64,000 nucleotides of DNA from Spongiibacteraceae bacterium. Lineage in GTDB: Bacteria; Pseudomonadota; Gammaproteobacteria; Pseudomonadales; CAMLJR01. The translations under genes were made by a program, and so were the position numbers. The DNA is taken from contig JAYVWC010000013.1 of NCBI GenBank assembly GCA_043786385.1, positions 722 to 64,721 on the forward strand. Direction: 5' to 3'. The notes beneath the pieces were generated by a model. The model did no database searches. It saw nothing but the letters and a program-made list of their open reading frames with translations, and was not told where the DNA came from. Each line of letters begins with the position of its first letter. Position 1 is the first letter of the stretch. Shown piece by piece: positions 50,963 through 64,000 of the stretch.

Positions 50963-52279
50963 ATGCATATCAATACACCTCACTTCGGCAGCGGTCGTTT
51001 TCATACCACCGACTTTGAACCACGTAATCGCCAGGTTTCGTCCGAGCAAGCTTCGTTGCTCAATGCATCGAACAATCAGGCGCCGACTACGCTCGCGCCG
51101 GTCGATGCGGTCGCCACAGTGGCGAAGCCGACGTTCGATGACGCAGCGGTTTCCAAATCGATACTCTCCTTTGTGCAGCAAAGGCTCAGCAAAGCGGCCG
51201 AGCAGGGCGCCTCGAAGGAGCAGCTCGGCAACTTGTTGGCGCAGGCGCGCGATGGTGTTGCTGCCGGGTTTGATCAGGCGATCAAGCAACTTAACGATAC
51301 CGGTGCGCTCAATGACGTCTTGAGCAGCGGCATCAGTGCCGCATTACAGAAAGTCGATAGCGGGCTCGATAATCTGGCAAAAGAGTTTGGCTTGTCGAGC
51401 AATGCCGATACCGCAGCGAACACCGTGTCGAGTGTTGCGCCGAATACCACATCGAATACAACGCAGAGCGCGCCGTCTAATACCGCGACTAATACGGTGG
51501 CAACTTCGCAGGCCGATTCACTGGGTCAATTGGCCGCTTCGTATCAGGCCAGTTTTTCCAGCAACCAAAGTGTCGATCTAATCGTGCAAACGGCCGACGG
51601 CGATACCGTGCATTTGCAGTTGGGCGTGCGCGATAAGCAATCGATTAGCGCCAGCTATCAAGCCAACGCCGATGGCCAGCAACTGACGATTTCCACGCGC
51701 GAAAAAAGCAGTGCGCGCTTAAATATTTCGGTGGACGGCAACTTGGATGCCGGCGAGCTGAAGGCGCTCAGCGATTTACTCGATAAAGTCGGCAGCTTGG
51801 CCGATAGTTTTTTCAGCGGCGATGTCGGCAGTGCGCTGCAACAGGCCGGATCGCTCGATTTCAGCAATCCCGAATTGAGTTCATTGTCGTTGAATTTGCA
51901 CAGCGAAGTGCGCAGCAAAGCGCAAGTGGCTGCGTATCAACAAGTGCAGTCGTTAGATGATAATGCGTCGAGCAAAACTACCGCTGCGCCAGCTTTATCC
52001 GGGCCATCTACTGTAGGGCTCTCTACAGTAGGGCTCTCTACAGTAGAGCTTGGCGATTTAGCCAATGCGTTAACGTCGCTGGTGCCGAAAGCAACGCTGG
52101 CAAATAATTCCGCGAGTTTATTGAAGCAATTATTGGCGGCGCAACTCGGCGCGACGAATCAACAAAATAATCCGCTGTTACATTTTGCCAATCGGTTGTT
52201 GAGCGCGTTGGGGGCCGATGCGGCGCCATCGGTGAGCACGCCCGTCGCGAGTAACGCAGCGGTTGATTCTTCGGTTTAA
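50963..52279 (+). CDS. DUF5610-like protein
   Basis: SILSFV...ARDGVAAGFDQA N-terminal motif; TADGDTV and VDGNLDAGEL..L..LADSFFSGD C-terminal region; Ser/Thr/Ala-rich. Confidence 0.7.
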   Translation: MHINTPHFGSGRFHTTDFEPRNRQVSSEQASLLNASNNQAPTTLAPVDAVATVAKPTFDDAAVSKSILSFVQQRLSKAAEQGASKEQLGNLLAQARDGVAAGFDQAIKQLNDTGALNDVLSSGISAALQKVDSGLDNLAKEFGLSSNADTAANTVSSVAPNTTSNTTQSAPSNTATNTVATSQADSLGQLAASYQASFSSNQSVDLIVQTADGDTVHLQLGVRDKQSISASYQANADGQQLTISTREKSSARLNISVDGNLDAGELKALSDLLDKVGSLADSFFSGDVGSALQQAGSLDFSNPELSSLSLNLHSEVRSKAQVAAYQQVQSLDDNASSKTTAAPALSGPSTVGLSTVGLSTVELGDLANALTSLVPKATLANNSASLLKQLLAAQLGATNQQNNPLLHFANRLLSALGADAAPSVSTPVASNAAVDSSV

Positions 52280-52378
52280 TTAATCGATTGTGTGTTCATA
52301 ATAAATTTTTGGATATTGTATTTTAGGGTGTAGGTGGGTAAGGTCGATGCCATAAGAGCAGGCTGAGTGCAGCCGGTT

Positions 52379-52409
52379 GCTGGCGGTGAGTTGCAAACTC
52401 ACAGCCAGC
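52379..52409. other. 31-bp imperfect inverted repeat just upstream of the WYL gene
   Basis: GCTGGC-G-GTGAGTT-GCA-AACTCAC-A-GCCAGC; no U-tract. Confidence 0.6.
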
Positions 52410-52427
52410 GATGTTGCCGACTACTGA

Positions 52428-53399
52428 ATGGAAGCCATGGCTAAACTCGACCACCTACAGCAATTACATCGCCTATTGAAAAGCCACCGGCGCCCCGTCC
52501 CTCTGGCGAAGTTAGCCGAGCGTATGGAGTGCTCCGAACGCACCGTACGGCGCACCATCGATAACATGAAAGATTTTTTCGATGCGCCGATCGAGTATGT
52601 TGCGGAGGCCAATGGCTGGCAGTATGCCGCACAAAACGGCGATCAATTCGAACTGCCGGGGTTGTGGTTGACCAGTGCCGAATTGCAATCGCTGACGTTA
52701 TTGCTGCACGTGCTCGAAAGTTTTGGCAACGGTCTGTTGAATCAAGAGCTGGCCACGGTTGAGAAGCAAATTAATCAGCTGCTGGAAGCCCGGCAGATCA
52801 GCCCAAGCGCCTTTGCCGAGCATATTAAGGTGTTGCCTCTTGGCAATCGTCAGGTGCCTGGCAAAATATTTCAGCAAGTCGGCGAGGCCTTGTTGCAGCG
52901 GCGGCAATTGACCATTCGCTACAAAAGTTATTCGCATCAAATCAGCAATCGCAGTATCAGCCCGCAGACGTTGGTATATTACCGCGAGAATTGGTACCTC
53001 GATGCGTGGTGTCATTTGCGCAACGATCTGCGTACCTTCTCGCTCGCACGTATCGAAACCACAGAAAAATCCGACGCCAAAGCCAGCACGATTTCACGCG
53101 AACAACTGCAACAGCATTTCAGCGAAAGTTACGGCATCTTTGCCGGTAAAGGCGGCCACACCGCCAAGCTGCGCTTTTTGCCCGAAATCGCCCGCGAAAT
53201 TGCGCTACAACAATGGCATCCGCAGCAACAAGGCGAATGGGACGGCAACGATTATCTGCTCAGCTTTCCCTACAGCGATGCGCGCGAATTGATCGGCGAT
53301 ATTCTGCGCCATCTACCCAACGTAGTCGTAGAGGCACCGTCAAGCCTGAAAAATGCCATCTACCGCCGGCTACAAAGTGCGCTGGAGTTGTATAAATAG
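52428..53399 (+). CDS. HTH-WYL-WCX transcriptional regulator (YafY/PafC-like)
   Basis: N-terminal wHTH (LAERMECSERTVRR); RSISPQTL...NWYLDAWC...RTFSLARI WYL domain; C-terminal VVEAPSSL. Confidence 0.93.
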   Translation: MEAMAKLDHLQQLHRLLKSHRRPVPLAKLAERMECSERTVRRTIDNMKDFFDAPIEYVAEANGWQYAAQNGDQFELPGLWLTSAELQSLTLLLHVLESFGNGLLNQELATVEKQINQLLEARQISPSAFAEHIKVLPLGNRQVPGKIFQQVGEALLQRRQLTIRYKSYSHQISNRSISPQTLVYYRENWYLDAWCHLRNDLRTFSLARIETTEKSDAKASTISREQLQQHFSESYGIFAGKGGHTAKLRFLPEIAREIALQQWHPQQQGEWDGNDYLLSFPYSDARELIGDILRHLPNVVVEAPSSLKNAIYRRLQSALELYK

Positions 53400-53418
53400 C
53401 GAAGTGAAAAATAAATAG

Positions 53419-53434
53419 CTGGATAAACAGCCAG
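53419..53434. promoter_or_regulatory. Putative LexA box upstream of cas3
   Basis: CTGGATAAACAGCCAG fits CTG-N10-CAG with CTGG/CCAG arms. Confidence 0.5.
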
Positions 53435-53447
53435 GACAGCTTTTGTC
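53435..53447. promoter_or_regulatory. Palindrome GACA-N5-TGTC, putative WYL regulator site
   Basis: GACAGCTTTTGTC, between the WYL stop and cas3. Confidence 0.45.
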
Positions 53448-53488
53448 AGGGCGGCGATATACAGTGCTCCGCAATGAGATGAACAACC

Positions 53489-53567
53489 GTAGGGGCAGAC
53501 CTATGTGTCTGCCCGGATATTCAAGCGCACGACAATCATTCGTAGGGGCAGGCCCCCGTGCCTGCCC
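53489..53567 (+). repeat. Two GTAG-family REP-like palindromes in direct orientation
   Basis: GTAGGGGCAGACCTATGTGTCTGCCC (53489-53514) and GTAGGGGCAGGCCCCCGTGCCTGCCC (53542-53567), with a compensatory stem change. Confidence 0.75.
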
Positions 53568-53585
53568 ATTTTGGTGGAAAAGAGT

Positions 53586-56057
53586 ATGACGGATCAATTT
53601 ATTGCGCATCCAGGGCAATCGCTGGAAGACCATTTGCGTGGCGTGGGTGACAAAGCAAAAGGTTTTGCGGCCAAGCTGGGTCTAGCTGAGCAAGGCGAAC
53701 TGATTGGTCTGTTGCATGACTTGGGTAAATACAGTCAGGAGTTCCAGAGCTATATCGGGTCGGCGACCGGTTTGATTAATCCAGACGAAGACGATTACGT
53801 TGATGCTGGCGTACTAAAAGGCAAGGTTGATCACTCGACTGCTGGCGCGCAATACATCTGGGAAGCTCTTTCTGCTAAGGGTGAGCTGGAGAAAATTGTT
53901 GCCCAAATACTCGCTCTATGTATTGCTTCCCATCACTCTGGGTTAATTGATTGCATATCGGCAGAAACCAATAATTTTGGTGAAGACACTTTTAACAAGC
54001 GCATGCGAAAAATTCGAGAAAAAACTCATATTGACGAAGTTTCTCAAGTTGTCGATCCGAATATTAATTCTCGATGTCAGCATTTGCTTGAAAACAGCGA
54101 AACAATTGAGGGAATAAAGAGTTTAATCGGTCAACTGATGCGCGCTAATACAAAGAATGGTCAGATGAACATGTGCGTGGCGCAGCAGCAAATTGGACTC
54201 GCTGTCAGATTTCTGTTCAGCTGTTTGATCGATGCGGATAGGATCGATACAGCAGATTCCGAACGAAAAAAAGTGCGGAATTATCGTCCGCTAGGTATTT
54301 ATACGGCGTGGTCTGTATTGGTTGAGCGTTTAGAGAGTCATTTGCAACGGCTTTCCCCTCGAAATCCCATTGACGGACTTCGCAACGATATATCTCAGCA
54401 CTGCCTTTCCGCTGCGTCGCGTAGCAACGGGGTCTTTACGCTGACAGTGCCAACGGGTGGTGGTAAAACATTGGCGAGCTTGCGTTTCGCTCTGCATCAT
54501 GCGGCTCGGAGAAAGTTGGACCGAGTAATTTATATCATCCCGTTTACATCAATCATCGACCAAAATGCGCGCGTGGTACGGGATATTTTGGAGCCAAAGG
54601 GGGCTGAAGGCGATTTAGGTAAGATGGTTTTGGAGCATCATTCAAGTTTGACACCGGAGCAGCAAACATGGCGTGAAAAGATTCTGTGTGAAAGTTGGGA
54701 TGCGCCAGTTATCTATACAACGATGGTCCAATTTCTTGAAACATTATTCGGGTCTGGTACGCGTGGCGCGAGAAGGATGCATCAATTGGCAAATTCCGTT
54801 CTGATATTCGATGAAATTCAGACGCTGCCAATAAATTGTGTTCATCTTTTCAATAACGCGATTAATTTTCTTGCAGAGCAATGCAATAGTACCGTTGTGC
54901 TTTGCACAGCGACACAGCCATTACTAAATAAGGTTAACCCGCTAAAAGGCGCAATTCGCCTGCACGAACAGCATGAAATAATGCCCGACGTGCATCAATT
55001 GTTTGAACAATTAAAACGGGTTGATGTGCGCGATCAACGTAAACCTGGCGGATGGAGTTATATCGAAGCCGCACAGCTGGCATTGAGTGAAGTCGAGCGC
55101 GCGGGTAGCTGCCTCGTCATTGTTAATACCAAAGATGCAGCCAAGGAGGTGTATGCCGTAGCGAGAGAGTGCTTGCCGAGTAAGGAAATTTATCATCTCA
55201 GCACCGATATGTGCCCACGGCATAGAAAACTAATACTTGCTCTCGTTAGGCGGCGCTTGAGGCGTAAGCAGCGCACATTGTGTGTTAGTACTCAGCTAAT
55301 CGAAGCCGGAGTTGATATTGATTTTGACGTAGTGATTCGTTCCTTGGCCGGACTGGACTCGATTGCACAAGCCGCTGGTCGCTGTAATCGAAATGGCATT
55401 CATGAGGCCGGTGTTGTGCATGTGATTAATTTACCGAGTGAGCGATTGGAGAAGTTGCCAAGTATTTTACAGGGACAAAACAATGCGCAACGGGTCATTG
55501 ATGACTACAGAGATGCACCCTTGCGCTACGGTAGAAATTTACTAGGGCCAGAGGCTTTGCGTGATTATTACCAATACTATTTTTTTGACAGGCAGAATGA
55601 GATGTCATATTCGATTTCTCCGCCAGTGGTAGGCGAGACTGACACTCTACTCAATTTATTGGCCGAGAATGGGCAGGCAGTAAACGAGTACGGATCACGC
55701 CAAGGAGCAAAGCCGGATATCTTCTTGAAGCAGGCTTTTATGACGGCGGCTAAAGCATTTAAATCGATTGATGCACCAACTCAAGGTGTGATTGTTCCGT
55801 ATGGAAGGGAAGGAAAAAAGCTGATTGGTGATCTTGGTGCTGCTTTTGAGGTTGAAAAACAATACGATTTATTAAAGGTGGCGCAGCAGTATACGGTTAA
55901 TGTTTTTCCGCACGTGATGGAAAAACTACGGAAGGAAAAAGCAATTTACCCGATACAAGAAGGTGTAAATATCATGCACCTAGATTCGCGTTACTACAGT
56001 AATGAGTTCGGTCTATCGGCTGATCCAGTTTCAAAAATGCAAAATGGAGTTGTGTAA
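53586..56057 (+). CDS. cas3: CRISPR-associated helicase/nuclease Cas3 (type I-C)
   Basis: EDHL and LHDLGK (HD domain), PTGGGKT, DEIQ, TATQP, STQLIEAGVD and QAAGRCNRNG. Start set to ATG 53586, after the REPs. Confidence 0.96.
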   Translation: MTDQFIAHPGQSLEDHLRGVGDKAKGFAAKLGLAEQGELIGLLHDLGKYSQEFQSYIGSATGLINPDEDDYVDAGVLKGKVDHSTAGAQYIWEALSAKGELEKIVAQILALCIASHHSGLIDCISAETNNFGEDTFNKRMRKIREKTHIDEVSQVVDPNINSRCQHLLENSETIEGIKSLIGQLMRANTKNGQMNMCVAQQQIGLAVRFLFSCLIDADRIDTADSERKKVRNYRPLGIYTAWSVLVERLESHLQRLSPRNPIDGLRNDISQHCLSAASRSNGVFTLTVPTGGGKTLASLRFALHHAARRKLDRVIYIIPFTSIIDQNARVVRDILEPKGAEGDLGKMVLEHHSSLTPEQQTWREKILCESWDAPVIYTTMVQFLETLFGSGTRGARRMHQLANSVLIFDEIQTLPINCVHLFNNAINFLAEQCNSTVVLCTATQPLLNKVNPLKGAIRLHEQHEIMPDVHQLFEQLKRVDVRDQRKPGGWSYIEAAQLALSEVERAGSCLVIVNTKDAAKEVYAVARECLPSKEIYHLSTDMCPRHRKLILALVRRRLRRKQRTLCVSTQLIEAGVDIDFDVVIRSLAGLDSIAQAAGRCNRNGIHEAGVVHVINLPSERLEKLPSILQGQNNAQRVIDDYRDAPLRYGRNLLGPEALRDYYQYYFFDRQNEMSYSISPPVVGETDTLLNLLAENGQAVNEYGSRQGAKPDIFLKQAFMTAAKAFKSIDAPTQGVIVPYGREGKKLIGDLGAAFEVEKQYDLLKVAQQYTVNVFPHVMEKLRKEKAIYPIQEGVNIMHLDSRYYSNEFGLSADPVSKMQNGVV

Positions 56058-56788
56058 TGATTGAATTACCAAAAAATACCATTGAGTTCAGGGTGTGGGC
56101 GCGGCATGCGTTATTTACCGATCCGTTGACAAAGGTTGGTGGTGAAAAGTGTTCGTACCATGTTCCTACCTATGAGGCCCTTAAAGGGATTGCAAAATCC
56201 ATTTACTGGAAGCCAACTTTGATTTGGGTAATTGATGAAGTGCGAGTGATGAAGCGTATTCGCACACAAACCAAGGGCACCAAGCCACTTAAATATAGTG
56301 GTGGTAATGATTTATCCATTTATACCTTCTTGGCCGATGTTGAGTATCAAGTAAGAGCTCATTTTGAATGGAATATGCAGCGTCAAGAGTTATCAGCAGA
56401 TCGAGTTGATGGCAAGCATTTCGCTATAGCCAAGCGAACCTTAGAGCGCGGAGGTCGGCAGGATATATTTTTAGGTACGCGCGATTGTCAGGGTTATGTC
56501 GAGCCTTGTGAGTTTGGCTCGGGTGCTGGCCACTACGATGATGCAGGAGAGTTGAGTTTTGGTCTGATGTTTCATGGGTTTGATTATCCCGATGAGTGTG
56601 GTGGCAAGGCTTTGTATAAACGCCTTTGGCGGCAAACCATGATAAATGGCGCGATTAAATTTTCGCGACCAGAGGCAGATTGCATGGTCAAATCTGCGGT
56701 GCGTGACATGGGTGTTAAGTCCTTCGGTGTGGAGAGTAATCTTCGCTCTGTGGATGAGGAATTGAGTGAGTTGGGAGCGTTGCTATGA
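56057..56788 (+). CDS. cas5: Cas5c (Cas5d) crRNA-processing subunit
   Basis: ALFTDP, SYHVPTYEALKGI..IYWKP and FLGTRDC motifs. Confidence 0.95.
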   Translation: MIELPKNTIEFRVWARHALFTDPLTKVGGEKCSYHVPTYEALKGIAKSIYWKPTLIWVIDEVRVMKRIRTQTKGTKPLKYSGGNDLSIYTFLADVEYQVRAHFEWNMQRQELSADRVDGKHFAIAKRTLERGGRQDIFLGTRDCQGYVEPCEFGSGAGHYDDAGELSFGLMFHGFDYPDECGGKALYKRLWRQTMINGAIKFSRPEADCMVKSAVRDMGVKSFGVESNLRSVDEELSELGALL

Positions 56789-58722
56789 GCTGGATGCAAA
56801 AGCTGTATGAAACTTATGAGCAGTGTGCCGGTAATGAACCAGATGGCACCGAGCGATTAATGCCGGTCAGTCATACCACGCAACAAGCACATATCGAAGT
56901 TGTTATTGATGGTGAAGGCAATTTTCGTAGGGCTACCGTTATTAAAAAAGAAGACACGGTTATTCCGGCAACAGAAAAGTCAGCGGGACGCAGTAGTGGC
57001 GAGGCTGCACATGCTTTGTGCGAAAAAATTCAATATTGTGCCAAAGATTATACGGACGATTTGTCCGGCTTTGGTGGAAAAAAACCATCCTATTTTTCCA
57101 GCTATCAAGTGCAGCTTCAACAGTGGTGCGAATCGCAGTTTAGCCACCCAAAGGCTAGGGCGATACTCAAGTACGTTAATGGCGGCAGGGTAGTTGCTGA
57201 TCTACTTGACTCCAAAGTTTTGCAGGTTTTGGATGGTGTATTGGAGGTTCAACGCAAGGAGGATGGAGTTAAAAAAGAGGTAATTTCTAATCGGCAGGAG
57301 GAAAAAAGTCAGTCGGTAGATATTTTTAAGCAATTAACCTTTAACGATAAGGGCATTAAAGATCAAGGTGATGCCATGATTCGCTGGCGTGTAGAGGAGT
57401 TGAATAATCCAATATCTGCTACATGGCAGGATCAATCTCTGGCTGAGGCGTGGACGAATTACTATGCCAGTACTCAAAATAAATACGGCTTATGTATGGT
57501 CAGCGGTATTGAAACGACATTAGCTCTTCAGCATCCAGCCAAGCTGCGTCATGGTGGTGATAAAGCTAAACTTATTTCATCTAATGATGCGAGTGGCTAT
57601 ACCTATCGCGGGCGTTTTATTGATTCAGACGAAGCCGTCGGTCTTGGTTTTGATGTCAGTCAAAAAGCGCACAATGCTTTGCGTTGGCTTATCAAACGGC
57701 AGGCGTATAAAAGTGGCGATCAGGTGATTGTTAGCTGGGTTGTTTCGGGCAAGCCTTTACCTGATCCATTTGCCAATAGTCTTGCATTATTTGGTATGAG
57801 CGACGCGGTTGTCATGGAAACTCAGCATCTTGATACTGCGCAGGCCTTCGCTCTTCGATTAAATAAAGCTATTGCGGGTTATCGTGCTCGACTCGATCCG
57901 CGTACTGATGTTGTGGTGATGGGTCTCGATTCGGCAACGAAGGGAAGAATGGCAATTTCTTTTTATCGTGAATTAAAAGGTTCCGATTTTTTGCAGCGAG
58001 TTGAGGAGTGGCATGCTCAATGTGCGTGGCCGCAAAACTTTGGAAAGGACAGTAAATTTACCGGTGCCCCGGCGCCACAGGATATTGCTGAAGCGGCATT
58101 TGGTCGACGATTAGACGAAAAATTGCGGAAAACGACAGTTGAGAGATTATTGCCTTGCATTATTGACGGGCAATTAATCCCAAAAGATTTAGTTGAATCT
58201 ACTAAACGACGGGCTTGTAATCGCGTCGGACTAGAAAACTGGGAGTGGGAGAAATGCCTTGGTATTGCCTGCTCCCTTCATAAAGCTTTTTACCCCCAAA
58301 GGAATTATCAAATGAGCTTGGAGACTGACCGAATAACTCGCGATTATCTATATGGTCGCCTGTTGGCGATCGCGGAAAAAATTGAAGCTATAGCGCTGTC
58401 GGTGGCTGGTGAGAAGCGCGATACAACAGCAGCACGGCTAATGCAACGCTTTTCGGACAGACCATTTTCGACGTGGAAAACGATTGAGTTGGCGCTGGTT
58501 CCCTACAAAACGCGGTTACGTTCAAGACGAGCCGGTTTTTTAGTCAATATGGAGAAGTTGCTAGATGAAATTAGCTGCGCTTTTCAAGCCGATGACTACA
58601 CCAGTGATCGACCGCTGTCCGGTGAGTTTTTGCTGGGCTATCACTGTCAGCGGCAAGCACTAAAACCTTCCGATGCTACAGGATCGGATATTCAATCAAA
58701 CCAAGATAAAGACGGAATTTAA
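56785..58722 (+). CDS. cas8c: Cas8c (Csd1) large subunit
   Basis: MSWMQKLYETY start; AKLISSND, KAHNALRWL and YLYGRLLA...FLLGY.CQ motifs. Confidence 0.94.
   Translation: MSWMQKLYETYEQCAGNEPDGTERLMPVSHTTQQAHIEVVIDGEGNFRRATVIKKEDTVIPATEKSAGRSSGEAAHALCEKIQYCAKDYTDDLSGFGGKKPSYFSSYQVQLQQWCESQFSHPKARAILKYVNGGRVVADLLDSKVLQVLDGVLEVQRKEDGVKKEVISNRQEEKSQSVDIFKQLTFNDKGIKDQGDAMIRWRVEELNNPISATWQDQSLAEAWTNYYASTQNKYGLCMVSGIETTLALQHPAKLRHGGDKAKLISSNDASGYTYRGRFIDSDEAVGLGFDVSQKAHNALRWLIKRQAYKSGDQVIVSWVVSGKPLPDPFANSLALFGMSDAVVMETQHLDTAQAFALRLNKAIAGYRARLDPRTDVVVMGLDSATKGRMAISFYRELKGSDFLQRVEEWHAQCAWPQNFGKDSKFTGAPAPQDIAEAAFGRRLDEKLRKTTVERLLPCIIDGQLIPKDLVESTKRRACNRVGLENWEWEKCLGIACSLHKAFYPQRNYQMSLETDRITRDYLYGRLLAIAEKIEAIALSVAGEKRDTTAARLMQRFSDRPFSTWKTIELALVPYKTRLRSRRAGFLVNMEKLLDEISCAFQADDYTSDRPLSGEFLLGYHCQRQALKPSDATGSDIQSNQDKDGI
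58312..58722 (+). CDS. cas11: Cas11c small subunit from an internal in-frame start in cas8c (136 aa)
   Basis: AAGGA RBS then in-frame ATG 58312 (MSLETDRITRDYLYGRLLA); internal translation of Cas11 from cas8c is established for type I-C. Confidence 0.75.
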   Translation: MSLETDRITRDYLYGRLLAIAEKIEAIALSVAGEKRDTTAARLMQRFSDRPFSTWKTIELALVPYKTRLRSRRAGFLVNMEKLLDEISCAFQADDYTSDRPLSGEFLLGYHCQRQALKPSDATGSDIQSNQDKDGI

Positions 58723-58732
58723 GGATAGAGCC

Positions 58733-59578
58733 ATGACTAGCTTGCAAAACAAAATTGATTTCGCAGTAATTTTTTCCGTAAAAAATGCCAATCCAAATGG
58801 CGACCCTCTTAATGGGAATCGTCCGCGTACCGACTATGCGGGTTTGGGCGAAATAACCGATGTTTGTCTCAAACGAAAAATTCGTGATCGTTTGATGGAG
58901 AGCGGTCACGCCATTTTCGTGCAGTCAGATGATCGAAAAAATGATGATGCCACCAGTCTTAGAGATAGGGCTGAAAAAGCACTGGGTAAGCTTGACGCAA
59001 AAGATTTAGCAAAGAAGGCTTGTGCAACGTGGTTGGATGTTCGATCTTTCGGTCAATTATTTGCATTAAAGGCTGATAAGAAAAAGAAGGACTCAGCCGA
59101 AGATTCAGGTGATACAGGTATTTCCATCGGTATACGTGGGCCAGCAAGTATTCAATCGGCGTTCAGTGTCGAGCCTATAGATGTCACCAGTACGCAAATT
59201 ACCAAGAGTGTTAATGGCGAGGATTCCGATGCGGGGAAACGATCATCGGACACTATGGGTATGAAGCATAGAGTTGATGGCGGTGTATATGTCGCCTTTG
59301 GCGCGATGAATCCGCAACTTGCTGTGCGCACAGAATTTAGCGACGACGATGCAGCCGCTATCAAATCCATTCTGCCAAAGATTTTTGAAAATGACGCTTC
59401 GTCTGCACGTCCAGAAGGCAGTATGAGGGTCATCAAGGTCATCTGGTGGAAACATAATTGTAAGCCCGGTCAGTATTCTTCAGCGAAGGTACACGGCTCG
59501 CTGAAAGTAAATCCAGATGGGAGCTATGATTTGGATCCAATTGATGGGCTTGTGCCAGAAGAGATCGATGGCTTCTGA
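58733..59578 (+). CDS. cas7: Cas7c (Csd2) backbone subunit
   Basis: NANPNGDP..NRPR, TDVCLKRKIR, DVRSFG, DTMGMKH and NDASSARP motifs; ATG 58733 follows AAGGA. Confidence 0.95.
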   Translation: MTSLQNKIDFAVIFSVKNANPNGDPLNGNRPRTDYAGLGEITDVCLKRKIRDRLMESGHAIFVQSDDRKNDDATSLRDRAEKALGKLDAKDLAKKACATWLDVRSFGQLFALKADKKKKDSAEDSGDTGISIGIRGPASIQSAFSVEPIDVTSTQITKSVNGEDSDAGKRSSDTMGMKHRVDGGVYVAFGAMNPQLAVRTEFSDDDAAAIKSILPKIFENDASSARPEGSMRVIKVIWWKHNCKPGQYSSAKVHGSLKVNPDGSYDLDPIDGLVPEEIDGF

Positions 59579-59714
59579 AATAGACGAAACCTACCTCGCC
59601 ATTTCCGCCCTGCAACACTACGCCTATTGCCCTCGGCAATTCGCGTTGATTTATGTGGTGCTGCTATGGGCGGAATTTAAAAATGCTCAGTGCCTTTCGT
59701 TAATTAAGAGGTGA
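59568..59714 (+). pseudogene. cas4: Truncated 5' copy of cas4 (48 codons)
   Basis: MASEIDETYLAISALQHYAYCPRQFALIYVVLLWAE matches the N-terminus of intact Cas4, then diverges and stops. Confidence 0.85.
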
Positions 59715-59717
59715 TAC

Positions 59718-59918
59718 ATGAACATTCAACAACTCAGCTCCAGCGAAAAAATTCTGCTTGCCGAAGAGCTTTGGGAAAGCGTTCGTGCCGACGCAGCCAA
59801 TAGTGAGCTGACCGATGCTCAGCGCCGGGAGCTGGATAGCAGATTGGCCGCTTTTGATCTTGATCGGGATATTGGCGACAGCTGGGATGCGGTAAAAAGC
59901 CGCATTACGTCGCTGTGA
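59718..59918 (+). CDS. Addiction-module antitoxin (TIGR02574-like)
   Basis: LSSSEKILLAEELWES...ELDSRL...SWDAVKSRI; acidic 66 aa; overlaps the toxin start (GTGA). Confidence 0.88.
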   Translation: MNIQQLSSSEKILLAEELWESVRADAANSELTDAQRRELDSRLAAFDLDRDIGDSWDAVKSRITSL

Positions 59919-60211
59919 GTTATCAGCTGACGATCCGCAGGGATGCGGAAGCTGATATTCGGGAAGCATTCGACTATTACGAATCATGTCGAGAGGGTTT
60001 GGGCCACGAATTTCTGTTGTGTATAGAGGCAGGGCTCGAAAATATCCGACGTAATCCATTGTTGTTTCGTACGATATACAAGAGCGTGATGCGCAGCATG
60101 ATCCATCGATTTCCTTACGGAATTTATTTTCTAATAAGGGACGAAAAAATTATCGTATTTGCCGTCATGCATGCCCGTCGCGCCTCTACACGCTGGCAAG
60201 AGCGCACTTGA
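59915..60211 (+). CDS. RelE/ParE-superfamily toxin
   Basis: AEADIREAFDYY...GLGHEF...RFPYGIYF...AVMHARR motifs. Confidence 0.9.
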   Translation: MSYQLTIRRDAEADIREAFDYYESCREGLGHEFLLCIEAGLENIRRNPLLFRTIYKSVMRSMIHRFPYGIYFLIRDEKIIVFAVMHARRASTRWQERT

Positions 60212-60892
60212 GTGGAAGACGAAACCTACCTCGCCATTTCCGCATTGCAACATTACGCCTATTGCCCTCGGCAATTCGCGTTGATTCATGTCGAGCAGGC
60301 GTGGGCGGAAAATCGCTTCACGGCGGAAGGCAAAGTGTTGCACGAGCGCGTCGATTCCGGTGTGGCGGAGCAGCGACGCGGTACGCGTTATGAACGCGGC
60401 GTGTCGCTGATTTCGCAGCGCTACAAAATCACCGGGAAAATGGATTTACTGGAAATCGAAGTTGCTAGTTCTGAAGCTGAAACGCCGCCGCGTTACTTTC
60501 CGGTTGAATACAAGCGCGGTAAACCGAAAGTGGAAGATTGGGATCGTATCCAGGTCTGTGCGCAAGCGTTGTGTATTGAAGAAATGCGCGCGGAGATGTT
60601 GCATGGCACGCAAATTACAGAAGGCGCTATCTGGTATTGGGAGGTGCGTCGGCGCGAGCCGTTATTGATCGATGAGGCGTTACGTGCCGCGACTATCGAA
60701 GTAATCGCCGGTGCGCACGCTATTCTGGCAAGCGGAAAAACACCACCACCCATTAATAATAAAAAACGCTGTCGTGGTTGCTCGCTGGTGGATTTGTGCG
60801 AGCCGCATACGTTTATCCGCGACAAGACTGCGGCGTATATCGAGGGGATATTTTCCGAGCGCGATTTGACCGCGCTGGGTGGTGAGGAATGA
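60212..60892 (+). CDS. cas4: Cas4
   Basis: YCPRQ, GKMD, PVEYKRGK, QVCAQALC and CRGCSLVDLC (Fe-S cysteines). Confidence 0.95.
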   Translation: MEDETYLAISALQHYAYCPRQFALIHVEQAWAENRFTAEGKVLHERVDSGVAEQRRGTRYERGVSLISQRYKITGKMDLLEIEVASSEAETPPRYFPVEYKRGKPKVEDWDRIQVCAQALCIEEMRAEMLHGTQITEGAIWYWEVRRREPLLIDEALRAATIEVIAGAHAILASGKTPPPINNKKRCRGCSLVDLCEPHTFIRDKTAAYIEGIFSERDLTALGGEE

Positions 60893-61905
60893 AAAAGTTA
60901 CTAAACACACTCTACATCACCCGTCAGGAAAGCTATCTGCACAAGGAGCGGGAAACCATCATCGTAAAAAATGGCGATGATAAGCTCGGTCAGTTTCCGG
61001 CGCTGACGGTCGGCAATATTTTGTGTTTCGGCCAAATATCGGTGTCGCCATTTTTGATGGGGTATTGTGCGGAGCAGGGTATCGGCTTGGCGTTTTACAC
61101 CGAATATGGTCGTTTTCTCGCGCGCGTGCAGGGTCGGCAAACCGGCAATGTGCTGCTGCGGCGCGAGCAATATCGCTGGGCCGATAATGCCGATCAATCC
61201 GTCGCCGTCGCTAGGTTGATGGTCGCGGCAAAAATTGCTAACAGTCGCGCAGTGCTGCAACGAGAAATTCGTAACCACGGTGCCAATGCGGCGCTGGATG
61301 AAGCGGCCCAACGTTTGGCGGTGAGCATGCGTCGTGCGCGTCACGCCCGCACAGTGGCAGAGGCGATGGGCATCGAGGGCGATGCGGCTAGCACTTACTT
61401 TGCGGTATTTAATGAGTTGTTGCGCGGCAGCGGTTTTGCGTTTGGCGGCAGAGTACGTCGCCCTCCAACCGATCCGGTCAATGCGTTGCTATCGTTTGTC
61501 TATTCATTGATCACGCAGGAATGCGCATCCGCGTTGCAAGGCGTCGGGCTCGATCCGTTCGTGGGTTTTTTGCACAAGGATCGTCCGGGTCGAGTTAGCC
61601 TTGCACTCGATTTACTCGAAGAGTTTCGCGCATCGTGGGCCGATCGCTTTGTGTTGACACTAATCAACCGACGCCAAGTGCAGCTCAGCGATTTCGTAAC
61701 CGAAGCCAGTGGTGCGGTACGTTTGAAGGACGATGCGCGCAAGGCGCTGTTGGTTGCATATCAAGAGCGCAAGCAGGTGGAAATTTTGCATCCTTATCTT
61801 GAAGAACAAATCCCCATCGGTTTGTTACCACATTGTCAGGCCATGCTATTGGCACGCCATATTCGCGGCGATACGCAATATTACCCCCCTTATCTTGTTA
61901 AATAA
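60889..61905 (+). CDS. cas1: Cas1 (type I-C)
   Basis: KLLNTLY, GNVLLRREQY, GIEG, RRPPTDPVNALLSF and SLALDLLEEFR motifs. Confidence 0.97.
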   Translation: MKKLLNTLYITRQESYLHKERETIIVKNGDDKLGQFPALTVGNILCFGQISVSPFLMGYCAEQGIGLAFYTEYGRFLARVQGRQTGNVLLRREQYRWADNADQSVAVARLMVAAKIANSRAVLQREIRNHGANAALDEAAQRLAVSMRRARHARTVAEAMGIEGDAASTYFAVFNELLRGSGFAFGGRVRRPPTDPVNALLSFVYSLITQECASALQGVGLDPFVGFLHKDRPGRVSLALDLLEEFRASWADRFVLTLINRRQVQLSDFVTEASGAVRLKDDARKALLVAYQERKQVEILHPYLEEQIPIGLLPHCQAMLLARHIRGDTQYYPPYLVK

Positions 61906-61919
61906 GTGGTTAAATAATT

Positions 61920-62213
61920 ATGTTGGTACTCGTTACCTATGATGTCAGCGTGGTGAGCGTGGGAGGGCAACGCCGGTTACGCAATATTGCCAAAACCTGC
62001 CTCGATTATGGTGTGCGCGTACAAAATTCTGTGTTTGAATGCGAACTAGACCCCGCCCATTTTGTGGCACTGAAAAACCGGCTGATGGAAATATACGATC
62101 CAGCGGAAGACAGTTTGCGATTTTACTTTCTCGGTAAAAAAGGTCGTCAAAAAGTCGAACACGTCGGCGCTAAGCCGGTAGCCGATCCGCTCCGCGATGT
62201 AATCATCCTATAA
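61920..62213 (+). CDS. cas2: Cas2
   Basis: MLVLVTYDV, GVRVQNSVFEC and DSLRFY motifs. Confidence 0.96.
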   Translation: MLVLVTYDVSVVSVGGQRRLRNIAKTCLDYGVRVQNSVFECELDPAHFVALKNRLMEIYDPAEDSLRFYFLGKKGRQKVEHVGAKPVADPLRDVIIL

Positions 62214-62388
62214 CCCGCTAATCCGTCGCTCTCATAAAATCCCTGGGTGTTAGCGCAAGCCTAATTCGTTGTTATTGCGGATCTATTTTTTTGATCGCTG
62301 AAATAGACGCTTATTTTTTTGCTGAGCTTGGTAGGTTAGCGGAACAAATTAGTTTTTTCCTCTGCCATCATCGGGTTACAATTAAACG
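62214..62388 (+). promoter_or_regulatory. CRISPR leader
   Basis: 175-bp non-coding segment between cas2 and the first repeat, with T-tracts and CGCTAA...TTAGCG inverted motifs. Confidence 0.8.
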
Positions 62389-64000
62389 GTCGCGCTCTTC
62401 GCGAGCGCGTGGATTGAAACGATATTTATATTGGCCGATGCCGCCAACACCGTGACGTCGCGCTCTTCGCGAGCGCGTGGATTGAAACTCCGTCAACGGC
62501 GCTACGCATCGAGCAAAGCGCGTCGCGCTCTTCGCGAGCGCGTGGATTGAAACACTTTTTTCATGCGCAACTGTCGCAAGTCGATGTAAGTCGCGCTCTT
62601 CGCGAGCGCGTGGATTGAAACTACGTGCTCTGTATTGATTCGCGATGCGCGATTGGTCGCGCTCTTCGCGAGCGCGTGGATTGAAACGCGCCGTTAACGT
62701 TGGTGCCCGTCACCGCTTGCGTGTCGCGCTCTTCGCGAGCGCGTGGATTGAAACGCTGGAACGCATGAGCAACACGTATTGGTGTTGGTCGCGCTCTTCG
62801 CGAGCGCGTGGATTGAAACTATGTCAGTAGCGTCGATGGATGCGCGGGTCACTTGTCGCGCTCTTCGCGAGCGCGTGGATTGAAACTTGCTCAATCATTG
62901 AAATGAATCGGCGTATGCAGTCGCGCTCTTCGCGAGCGCGTGGATTGAAACCAGCCAGACTCACCGTTTGATAGCCGGATAAGCGGTCGCGCTCTTCGCG
63001 AGCGCGTGGATTGAAACCAGCCAGACTCACCGTTTGATAGCCGGATAAGCGTGTCGCGCTCTTCGCGAGCGCGTGGATTGAAACGCAAAATCGTGCGCGT
63101 GGATTGCTTCATCATGAAGTCGCGCTCTTCGCGAGCGCGTGGATTGAAACTTCGATACCAGCACCCAGTCCGCAATAATTGATGTCGCGCTCTTCGCGAG
63201 CGCGTGGATTGAAACCCCGCTTACTGGCCGCAAAAGTTCGCCATCGTAAGTCGCGCTCTTCGCGAGCGCGTGGATTGAAACGCTTCGCGCACGAGCCATT
63301 TGTTTACCGAGATAGGTCGCGCTCTTCGCGAGCGCGTGGATTGAAACATACCGGGAGCATTCGCGATTGCCGTCGCAACGCGTCGCGCTCTTCGCGAGCG
63401 CGTGGATTGAAACCAAGTGCGGCGGCAAGAGTTTGCGGTTAAACACAAGTCGCGCTCTTCGCGAGCGCGTGGATTGAAACTCGATTTCCCCGGGCCAATC
63501 AATGTGAGCTTAACGCGTCGCGCTCTTCGCGAGCGCGTGGATTGAAACGATTCAACGCATCGTCAGGTGCTAATAACTTCCAGGTCGCGCTCTTCGCGAG
63601 CGCGTGGATTGAAACAAGCGTGGCTTGCAGGCCGGTGAAGTTTTGCCAGGTCGCGCTCTTCGCGAGCGCGTGGATTGAAACTCGATGCGCTGAGTCTTGC
63701 CGGTGATCATTTGTGTCGCGCTCTTCGCGAGCGCGTGGATTGAAACTTGCAGTAGTGCCATGCCTTTCGGTAAAACTAAACGTCGCGCTCTTCGCGAGCG
63801 CGTGGATTGAAACGGCTCGTCAATCGGCAGCAAAGCAAAAGACAAATCGTCGCGCTCTTCGCGAGCGCGTGGATTGAAACTAAATCACTCAGCAAACGCT
63901 CCGCATCGTTAGAGTGTCGCGCTCTTCGCGAGCGCGTGGATTGAAACAACGGAAATGCATCGATCAACCGTTGCCACGTTTGTCGCGCTCTTCGCGAGCG
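62389..64000 (+). CRISPR. Type I-C CRISPR array: 24 complete repeats plus 1 partial, 24 spacers of 33-36 nt; continues beyond the window
   Basis: Invariant 32-nt repeat GTCGCGCTCTTCGCGAGCGCGTGGATTGAAAC with an internal hairpin and ATTGAAAC 3' end. Confidence 0.99.

Follow-up and report, generated by a model that had tools for sequence, protein, structure and literature searches.

A ParE-type toxin-antitoxin pair at the interference-adaptation seam of an apparently chimeric bacterial type I-C CRISPR-Cas operon

A 64,000-nt stretch of contig JAYVWC010000013.1 from a Spongiibacteraceae bacterium (hereafter, the window) encodes a CRISPR-Cas locus in which a ParE-type toxin-antitoxin (TA) pair lies between cas7c and cas4. 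The locus is complete, with cas3-cas5c-cas8c-cas7c-cas4-cas1-cas2 recognized by profile matches and an array behind them, and is assigned on this basis to type I-C. The reading that we favor, and hold with about even confidence, is that the pair is a generic addiction module at the seam between the two halves of a chimeric operon, transcribed by read-through from the cas promoter and without sensing of Cascade. In type II TA systems, loss of the encoding segment or shut-off of its promoter depletes the antitoxin and frees the toxin. In the window the pair would stand between the interference genes (cas3 to cas7) and the adaptation genes (cas4-cas1-cas2), and read-through from the cas promoter would supply both TA genes. 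Loss or silencing of the segment would then deplete the antitoxin and free the toxin, placing a penalty on the loss of the TA pair and of the neighboring CRISPR DNA; by analogy with the general logic of such modules, an addiction effect upon loss or silencing of the operon is plausible. In what follows, the genomes and loci compared carry G- and L-numbers, G000 being the window's own genome.

An ordinary type II pair within the cas operon

The first-pass annotation of this DNA had proposed a ParE-type TA module between cas7 and cas4, and both genes indeed score above the curated cut-offs of their families. The antitoxin matches PF09720 (E 1.8e-13, 50.7 bits against a cut-off of 23.3) and TIGR02574 (E 7.8e-16, 57.8 against 31.9), and the toxin matches PF05016 (E 1.1e-9, 39.1 bits against 23). 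Two small adjacent and overlapping genes, antitoxin first, encoding 66 and 98 amino acids, have the form of a type II TA system. All four junctions, which had been described as tightly coupled, are confirmed to the nucleotide: the ATG of a short cas4-like open reading frame (ORF), called the stub below, lies within the final 11 nt of cas7; 3 nt separate the stub from the antitoxin ATG at 59718; antitoxin and toxin overlap as GTGA (59915-59918); and the toxin TGA (60209-60211) directly abuts the cas4 GTG at 60212.

The sole PDB match of the toxin is ParE2 (8c26_A, E 4e-5), a gyrase poison that traps the gyrase cleavage complex (PMC10899793); the antitoxin, searched against PDB sequences, returned nothing significant, and PADLOC holds no model for either TA gene. 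In an alignment of 35 sequences (the window toxin and 34 relatives, namely 32 of 95 other hits and two loci), the toxin keeps 7/7 invariant columns. The predicted toxin-antitoxin complex, which is a model only, scores 0.82 against 0.00 for the best of three controls, with contact agreement of at least 92% and partner values of the predicted local distance difference test (pLDDT) of at least 81; the mark set for the score is reached by 116 of 157 solved pairs and by 2 of 215 mismatched pairs. Since a similar ParDE complex has already been solved, the score shows likeness and not binding. Family knowledge and the predicted complex together suggest that the toxin poisons gyrase and is restrained by a labile antitoxin. 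Between the window pair and its relatives in genomes G051 and G055, the proportion of synonymous differences (pS) is saturated at 0.81-0.86, whereas the nonsynonymous proportion (pN) is 0.21-0.31; a low pN at saturated pS points to long-term constraint on the TA. Judged from its sequence, the module is an ordinary, standard-looking TA. Its plasmid homologues are annotated as RelE/ParE toxin and addiction module protein, and a scan of metagenomes for the toxin retrieved six distant loci, none with cas genes. The window's own genome holds 12 ParE, 10 PIN, 2 HicA and 3 Gp49 toxin-family matches in 2.58 Mb, or about one per 96 kb, and PIN, ParE and Gp49 matches, at least seven in all, crowd into about 9 kb at G000:C1:81000-89700, elsewhere in this genome.

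The cas7-cas4 junction as a recurrent insertion site

The seam was surveyed in the best 80 of 538 cas7 relatives, 74 of which show both cas7 and cas4. Gaps of more than 200 nt occur at the cas7-cas4 junction in 27/74 loci and at cas4-cas1 in 14/69, and at none of the other junctions (cas3-cas5 0/70, cas5-cas8 0/71, cas8-cas7 0/79, cas1-cas2 0/69). The 27 cas7-cas4 inserts consist of 18 TA pairs, one orphan antitoxin and 8 other inserts with Bro-N, RhuM, HEAT-repeat and IVP genes. When the L031 pair, which lies behind a stub of its own, is added to the 18, TA pairs are found at the junction in 19/74 loci, a recurrence of the insertion point that the earlier annotation had marked for checking. 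A sense pair is present in 13 of these 19 loci (one of them also with an antisense pair) and the remaining 6 have antisense pairs only, which brings loci with an antisense pair to 7/19. Eight pairings are represented: HicA with a small partner, PIN, RHH-ParE, ParD-ParE, PF09720-ParE, Gp49/HI1420, DUF4258 with an MqsA/YokU-like partner, and DUF433/DUF5615. PIN with three antitoxin types is counted here as one pairing, and the HicA partner, which has no Pfam hit, is HicB-like by position only; the TA status of the eight follows family annotation or is presumed by us. Inserts were seen at two places of the operon, the seam being one, so that TA pairs would seem to have been taken up and exchanged there time and again.

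An even sample across the class (matches in 35 of 400 genomes, the 30 best loci taken, both genes visible in 25 non-self loci) gives a comparable picture, with TA-family genes at cas7-cas4 in 10/25 loci and both partners in 8, three of these TA loci looking the same as, or nearly identical to, loci of the first set. As a control from another subtype, type I-E loci (L171-L197, three partial loci excluded) have TA-family genes within 1.5 kb before cas1 in 10/27; both partners were recognized in 7 of these 10, cas6e is visible upstream in 7, and L179 carries a PF09720-ParE pair. The presence of a TA is clustered on both trees, and supported branches force at least 8-10 changes. The seam loci include kin and are hence not independent. 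The hot-spot comparison is one among cas junctions and, being confined to cas operons, the enrichment at the seam does not discriminate between selection for the pairs and tolerance of inserts.

Other cargo was seen around these junctions. RhuM-family genes recur directly after cas7 in L084, L086, L088, L138 and L139 (by Pfam in four, by eye in L084), and nucleotidyltransferase genes (MNT-like) stand before cas1e in the I-E loci L178 and L184. The cas4-cas1 gaps (L048, L056, L057, L061, L069, L074, L076, L088) contain diverse defense-like cargo, several of them in Neisseria and Pasteurellaceae records: reverse transcriptase, Mrr-like nuclease, DUF1643, Fic, KilA-N and Bro-N genes, and two ORFs without a Pfam hit. 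TA genes occur on both sides of cas4 in L026 (4924-7313), in the order HicA pair, antisense PF09720-ParE, cas4, antisense RHH-MazF, and L038 (2583-4769) has much the same order, cas4 being followed there by an antisense PIN gene.

The cas4 stub and the direct repeat

The pair is bracketed, as the first-pass annotation had it, by a 94-bp direct repeat of the cas4 5' end, the two copies being 89% identical at a spacing of 635 (BLASTN E 3e-29 against the genome; positions in Table 1). The copies differ at 10/94 sites, unevenly spread: the first 70 nt have 3 mismatches, the final 24 nt have 7. Over its first 23 codons the stub has three differences from cas4, all of them synonymous (stub core pS 0.19, pN 0), and in the 8 codons behind these there are 7 changes, with 4 residues replaced. 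A core with synonymous differences only is what would be expected of two cas4 alleles that diverged while functional, and not of a decaying duplicate, and the repeat has the look of a scar left by recombination. At the three synonymous sites the stub alleles match G644, which has a TA-less junction, and the alleles of the full-length cas4 match the TA-bearing G055. The plain cas7-cas4 junction of G644 reads TGA-A-ATG-GAC and that of the window TGA-A-ATA-GAC, so that the ancestral cas4 start at 59580 has apparently been lost.

The same layout, cas7 followed by a cas4 stub, TA gene(s) and cas4, recurs in two of the loci compared. In L031 a stub directly after cas7, which breaks off near codon 130 at a palindrome-like GTAG sequence, is followed by DUF433/DUF5615 and the full cas4; in L144 a stub of about 70 nt with only synonymous differences is followed by a DUF433 gene and the full cas4. 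We suppose that the TA arrived attached to the cas4 allele of a related locus, and that recombination through the conserved cas4 5' end brought it into an operon in which cas7 abutted cas4, the start of the resident cas4 being left behind as the stub. Integration of a circle, or one homologous and one illegitimate join, may have been the route.

Several other origins were considered for the repeat and the insert. A fresh tandem duplication is disfavored by the synonymous-only core and by the existence of related TA loci without a stub. Nor did the TA just fall between two new cas4 copies: on the sequence comparisons it is a cas4-linked unit older than the stub, at a seam that takes many TA families, antisense pairs among them, and non-TA genes. 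The insert also lacks the marks of a transposon-like insertion: the long, diverged repeat with its synonymous bias is not an identical short duplication, there is no mobility gene, and of 37 inverted-repeat pairs none of the 25 longest coincides with the ends of the insert. The overlap of the stub ATG with cas7, which had been taken as a sign of coupling, was rejected as a designed feature and is a by-product, an ATG from the Cas7 C-terminal codons being found at the same place in 27/81 related loci.

Recombination between the repeats had been predicted to delete 635 bp and restore a plain junction, and deletion in silico does yield a single open cas4 frame from the ATG at 59568. Such a route exists, but with the antitoxin gene gone, the cells concerned would face residual toxin. 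The excised allele itself, whose detection had been suggested as a check, did not turn up, there being no 635-bp joint in the contigs of three runs, which drop rare variants.

Folding of the stub segment 59602-59675 gives a long stem with imperfections, formed by pairing of the diverged tail with the 5' portion of the stub, and the fold of 59575-59720 has a z of -2.63 (3/200 shuffles). This stem comes largely from the cas4 sequence (a cas4-type tail gives -31.8 against -34.1 observed), and equally good folds were obtained in 1019/3000 trials with random bases at the same positions and in 127/3000 with random positions; the stub as a structured RNA was for these reasons set aside.

Different ancestry of the two sides of the operon

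A Cas4 search of 401 genomes of the same order matched 19. G051 and G055, from two other families of that order, carry a related TA directly between cas7 and cas4, without a stub and beginning about 20-30 nt past the cas7 stop. Their antitoxins are 67% and 65%, and their toxins 59% and 60%, identical to those of the window, and G055 shares with the window the TGA/GTG junction of toxin and cas4. Among the 20 best toxin matches in 301 genomes, cas genes lie within 1.5 kb only in the window, G051 and G055, and in the toxin tree these three fall into a weakly supported group of six, together with the non-cas G103 and two proteins of unknown context. To judge from the sequences, a single origin of the three cas-embedded TAs is likely.

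Cas trees were computed from 26-27 hand-picked rows. The group of window, G051 and G055 was chosen from the shared TA, and the split in Cas7 had already been seen before the approximately unbiased (AU) test; so framed, the test rejects the group for Cas7 (p 0.0037) and Cas8 (p 4e-8) and does not reject it for Cas1 (p 0.20). For Cas4 the group is present in the best tree with support of 64/91 (91 also by FastTree), and is neither shown nor rejected. As these trees have it, the locus is chimeric, its cas7/cas8 side being of other descent than that of the loci which carry the related TA. GC content at third codon positions (GC3) is 0.40-0.44 in the cas3-cas7 genes as against 0.57 in cas4 and cas1. 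An RHH-ParE pair precedes similar cas4-cas1-cas2 genes in G016 and G387, whose Cas7 proteins are 67% and 32% identical to that of the window; given the retention of this pair despite differing Cas7, and the Cas trees, TA pairs appear to travel with the adaptation side.

Transcription and the search for RNA-based control

No terminator-like site is present between cas7 and cas4, in agreement with the initial annotation; its companion claim, that no separate promoter is evident, holds only at the consensus level, owing to a weak site in cas7 that is weighed below. Promoter-like sites in 53300-62400 number 8, against 12.7 expected by shuffling. A TANNNT hexamer at -55 to -20 of the antitoxin start is present in 10/11 stand-alone homologues and in 0/3 cas-embedded ones (a small and related set), and its absence from the latter favors read-through. 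With these hexamer counts, and with related TAs that begin so closely behind the cas7 stop, transcription of the TA by read-through from the cas promoter is likely as far as sequence comparison can indicate; the proposed co-expression with the cas genes stands to this extent, the weak cas7 site being the reservation.

We also looked for traces of control by RNA. An ungapped scan for a degenerate repeat in 52000-62380 found nothing nearer than 14 mismatches in 32, although a heavily gapped remnant could escape it. None of the 26 spacers has a seed match (10/11) in the insert, in the leader or in the DNA upstream of cas3 or wyl, and Rfam gave no hit for an RNA family. A guide-target scan of the stub tail recovered the tail itself, four 12-position matches dispersed over other contigs, and no other cas-proximal target. 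In the absence of a repeat-like unit, a spacer seed match or an RNA family, nothing visible ties the toxin to Cascade activity, and control of the TA by a solitary repeat or a CRISPR RNA (crRNA)-like molecule was rejected.

Relation to described systems

With type II ParDE modules that have a PF09720/TIGR02574 antitoxin, the pair shares the antitoxin-first overlapping two-gene unit and the PF05016 toxin; it differs from them in being embedded in a cas operon, and gyrase targeting and autoregulation would follow by family only. In the Sulfolobales, vapBC pairs are interspersed in cas cassettes and have been proposed to help maintain CRISPR-Cas (PMC4390879). These are likewise protein TA pairs inside cas cassettes, whereas here the loci are bacterial, of types I-C and I-E, with a fixed interference-adaptation seam, eight pairings, and cas4 stubs as apparent scars of exchange; the available part of the archaeal account gives neither a positional rule nor a test (PMC4390879). 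In CreTA/CrePA a crRNA-like RNA serves as the antitoxin by directing Cascade to the toxin promoter, which is thereby repressed (PMC12737573); the link between a toxin locus and a type I CRISPR operon, and a possible safeguarding outcome, are common to both cases. The antitoxin in the window is, in contrast, a protein, and neither a crRNA-like antitoxin nor a guide target was found; the analogy to CreTA drawn in the first-pass annotation thus fails on mechanism, there being no repeat-like unit and no spacer seed match. CRISIS cassettes, which are also non-cas and potentially toxic genes inside the I-C cas operon, separate cas3 from cas5c and have behind them a solitary repeat unit that targets their promoter (bioRxiv 10.1101/2024.12.27.630466); in the window, by contrast, cas3 runs directly into cas5, the insert falls between cas7 and cas4 and there is no solitary repeat, and a cas3-cas5 insert is present in 0/70 related loci.

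On a more general level, TA pairs border CRISPR modules, with none enriched at type III modules (PMC6546367), an authors' response sees no strong link between TA and CRISPR (PMC2701414), and a coupling of immunity and dormancy has been hypothesized in which the toxin "buys time" (PMC3632139). Searches of the accessible literature turned up no account of TA pairs between cas7 and cas4, or between cas6e and cas1, of bacteria, and PMC6452270 adds nothing on position as far as it was available; subscription papers or supplements may hold such loci. The idea of TA-maintained cas loci is old, and it is the positional regularity across I-C and I-E, together with the cas4-stub scars, that appears to be undescribed so far. 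The persistence of costly CRISPR-Cas loci and their coupling to type II TAs have been argued mostly from loose co-location in defense islands. The association reported here has a fixed address, one junction with many TA families in two subtypes, and so provides matched alleles with and without a TA; this locus even offers a built-in allele pair, as the 635-bp recombination removes the TA and leaves cas4 in frame. The stub records a likely exchange route of adaptation modules and their cargo, and if the TA is a mere passenger, the seam is still a defined hot spot for accessory defense genes.

Alternative explanations

A number of observations weigh against a cas-linked addiction module that arrived with cas4 and is read from the cas promoter. 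No TA pair is present at the seam in 55/74 related loci, which makes the TA dispensable. Of the 20 toxin matches that score best in 301 genomes, 17 have no cas gene within 1.5 kb; the surroundings of 12 of these 17 were scanned, and the neighbors there include insertion sequence (IS) elements, integrases, further TA genes and housekeeping genes. The cas-embedded toxins, with G103 among them, do not form an exclusive clade, so that separate capture of similar TAs is possible on the toxin tree. The Cas4 grouping is not firmly supported, the nearest Cas1 is that of G016, and the argument from stub and cas4 alleles depends on three sites, which is thin evidence. One weak promoter-like site (9/12) lies on the + strand in the cas7 3' end (59501-59530), and a ParDE2 operon for which no promoter had been predicted has a real one 103 bp upstream (PMC4906023). 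Finally, the toxin carries Ser at the near-invariant Pro91 (P91), and substitution of a C-terminal proline reduced the toxicity of a related ParE2 (PMC4906023), a residue whose equivalence with Pro91 is not established.

The TA could instead be a selfish or neutral passenger that keeps itself by a weak promoter of its own and brings no benefit to CRISPR immunity or its retention, with TA pairs gathering at the seam solely as a recombination-prone boundary tolerant of inserts, an explanation that we consider unlikely and yet grant an appreciable chance. It would account for the non-TA cargo at the same junction (8/27 inserts), for the antisense pairs in 7/19 TA loci, which cas transcription could not drive, for the -10-like hexamers that several forward pairs possess, and for close homologues beside IS elements, integrases and housekeeping genes; the at least 27 toxin-family matches in the genome and the authors' response denying a strong TA-CRISPR link (PMC2701414) are in line with it. 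It sits less well with 19/74 loci having a TA at one junction as compared to about one toxin match per 96 kb in this genome (a rough comparison, across different genomes), with the lack of a -10-like hexamer in the cas-embedded relatives, or with a toxin-cas4 junction that has been kept though synonymous sites are saturated. To a more ambitious proposal we give a modest chance: that the seam is a selected, exchangeable slot for protein TAs in bacterial type I operons, filled in about a quarter to a third of the loci of this group, swapped through the conserved cas4 5' end and wired to cas transcription in such a way that shut-off or loss of the operon frees a toxin, as a widespread RNA-free safeguard or dormancy arm of CRISPR immunity.

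A protein-based CRISPR safeguard, in which phage shut-off of the cas operon would free ParE and abort the infection, as CreTA does upon loss of Cascade, seems improbable to us, with a small chance of being correct. The tight coupling at every junction, the lack of a terminator-like site between cas7 and cas4, the probable loss of an own promoter, the WYL regulator upstream and the recurrence in I-C and I-E are compatible with it; opposed to it are the lack of any repeat-like unit, spacer seed match, Rfam hit or cas-proximal guide target, and the fact that antisense pairs and toxin families with different targets share the site. Anti-CRISPR proteins, moreover, block Cascade or Cas3 after translation and would not cut the supply of antitoxin. 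The pair could also be a helper of adaptation, toxin released by infection slowing growth or making gyrase-linked breaks and thus giving time and substrate to Cas4-Cas1-Cas2. The position of TA pairs directly before or among the adaptation genes in I-C and I-E, their staying with cas4-cas1-cas2 across interference swaps and the "buy time" hypothesis (PMC3632139) agree with such a role, but module boundaries explain the position equally well and most loci have no TA, and we see only a slim chance for it. That the duplication is an artifact of a metagenome bin in which the assembly collapsed two strains is hardly credible: the genome is 82% complete in 89 contigs and no single Logan contig spans the stretch, but the copies differ at a tenth of their sites, similar stubs exist in L031 and L144, and overlapping contigs of two runs (from one study, possibly the source of this DNA) tile cas7-stub-TA-cas4 with 0 differences, at depths of 18.3/18.2/17.2 and 16.4/17/16. 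The even depth and the lack of a joint skipping the 635 bp make such an artifact unlikely.

Features of the locus

Table 1. Positions of the cas genes, the TA pair and associated features in the window
Feature	Position	Strand	Evidence or remark
Helix-turn-helix (HTH)-WYL-WCX regulator gene, upstream of cas3	52428-53399	+	Pfam WYL E 8e-21, HTH_11, WCX
cas3	53586-56057	+	interference gene
cas5c	56057-56788	+	interference gene
cas8c	56785-58722	+	interference gene
cas7c, last gene of the interference block	58733-59578	+	TIGR02589 E 2e-92
cas4 5' stub ORF, 48 aa	59568-59714	+	TIGR00372 E 0.008, below cut-off
Direct repeat copy 1 (cas4 5' end)	59582-59675	+	94 nt
Shine-Dalgarno-like AAGAGGTG before the antitoxin, overlapping the stub stop	59706-59713	+	sequence
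Antitoxin, 66 aa	59718-59918	+	PF09720 / TIGR02574 addiction-module component
RelE/ParE-family toxin, 98 aa, GTG start	59915-60211	+	PF05016; PDB 8c26_A ParE2 E 4e-5
Full-length cas4, GTG start	60212-60892	+	family profiles
Direct repeat copy 2, inside cas4	60217-60310	+	94 nt
cas1c	60889-61905	+	adaptation gene
cas2	61920-62213	+	adaptation gene
CRISPR array, 32-nt type I-C repeat	62389-64000	+	27 repeats on the contig, continuing past the window end

The WYL regulator gene has a GC3 of 0.62, like the adjacent dinB-like gene and unlike cas3-cas7, and such a regulator also precedes cas3 in G016 and G387, whose interference genes differ. Between wyl and cas3, at 53488-53567, lie two GTAG-initiated palindromes of 27 nt that are 81% alike, the second of which scores as terminator-like. 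The GTAG sequence that marks the cas4 truncation point in L031 is similar to these palindromes, and both would fit the label of repetitive extragenic palindromic (REP) elements. In the array, spacers 9 and 10 (62920-63052), of 34 and 35 nt, are a tandem duplicate.

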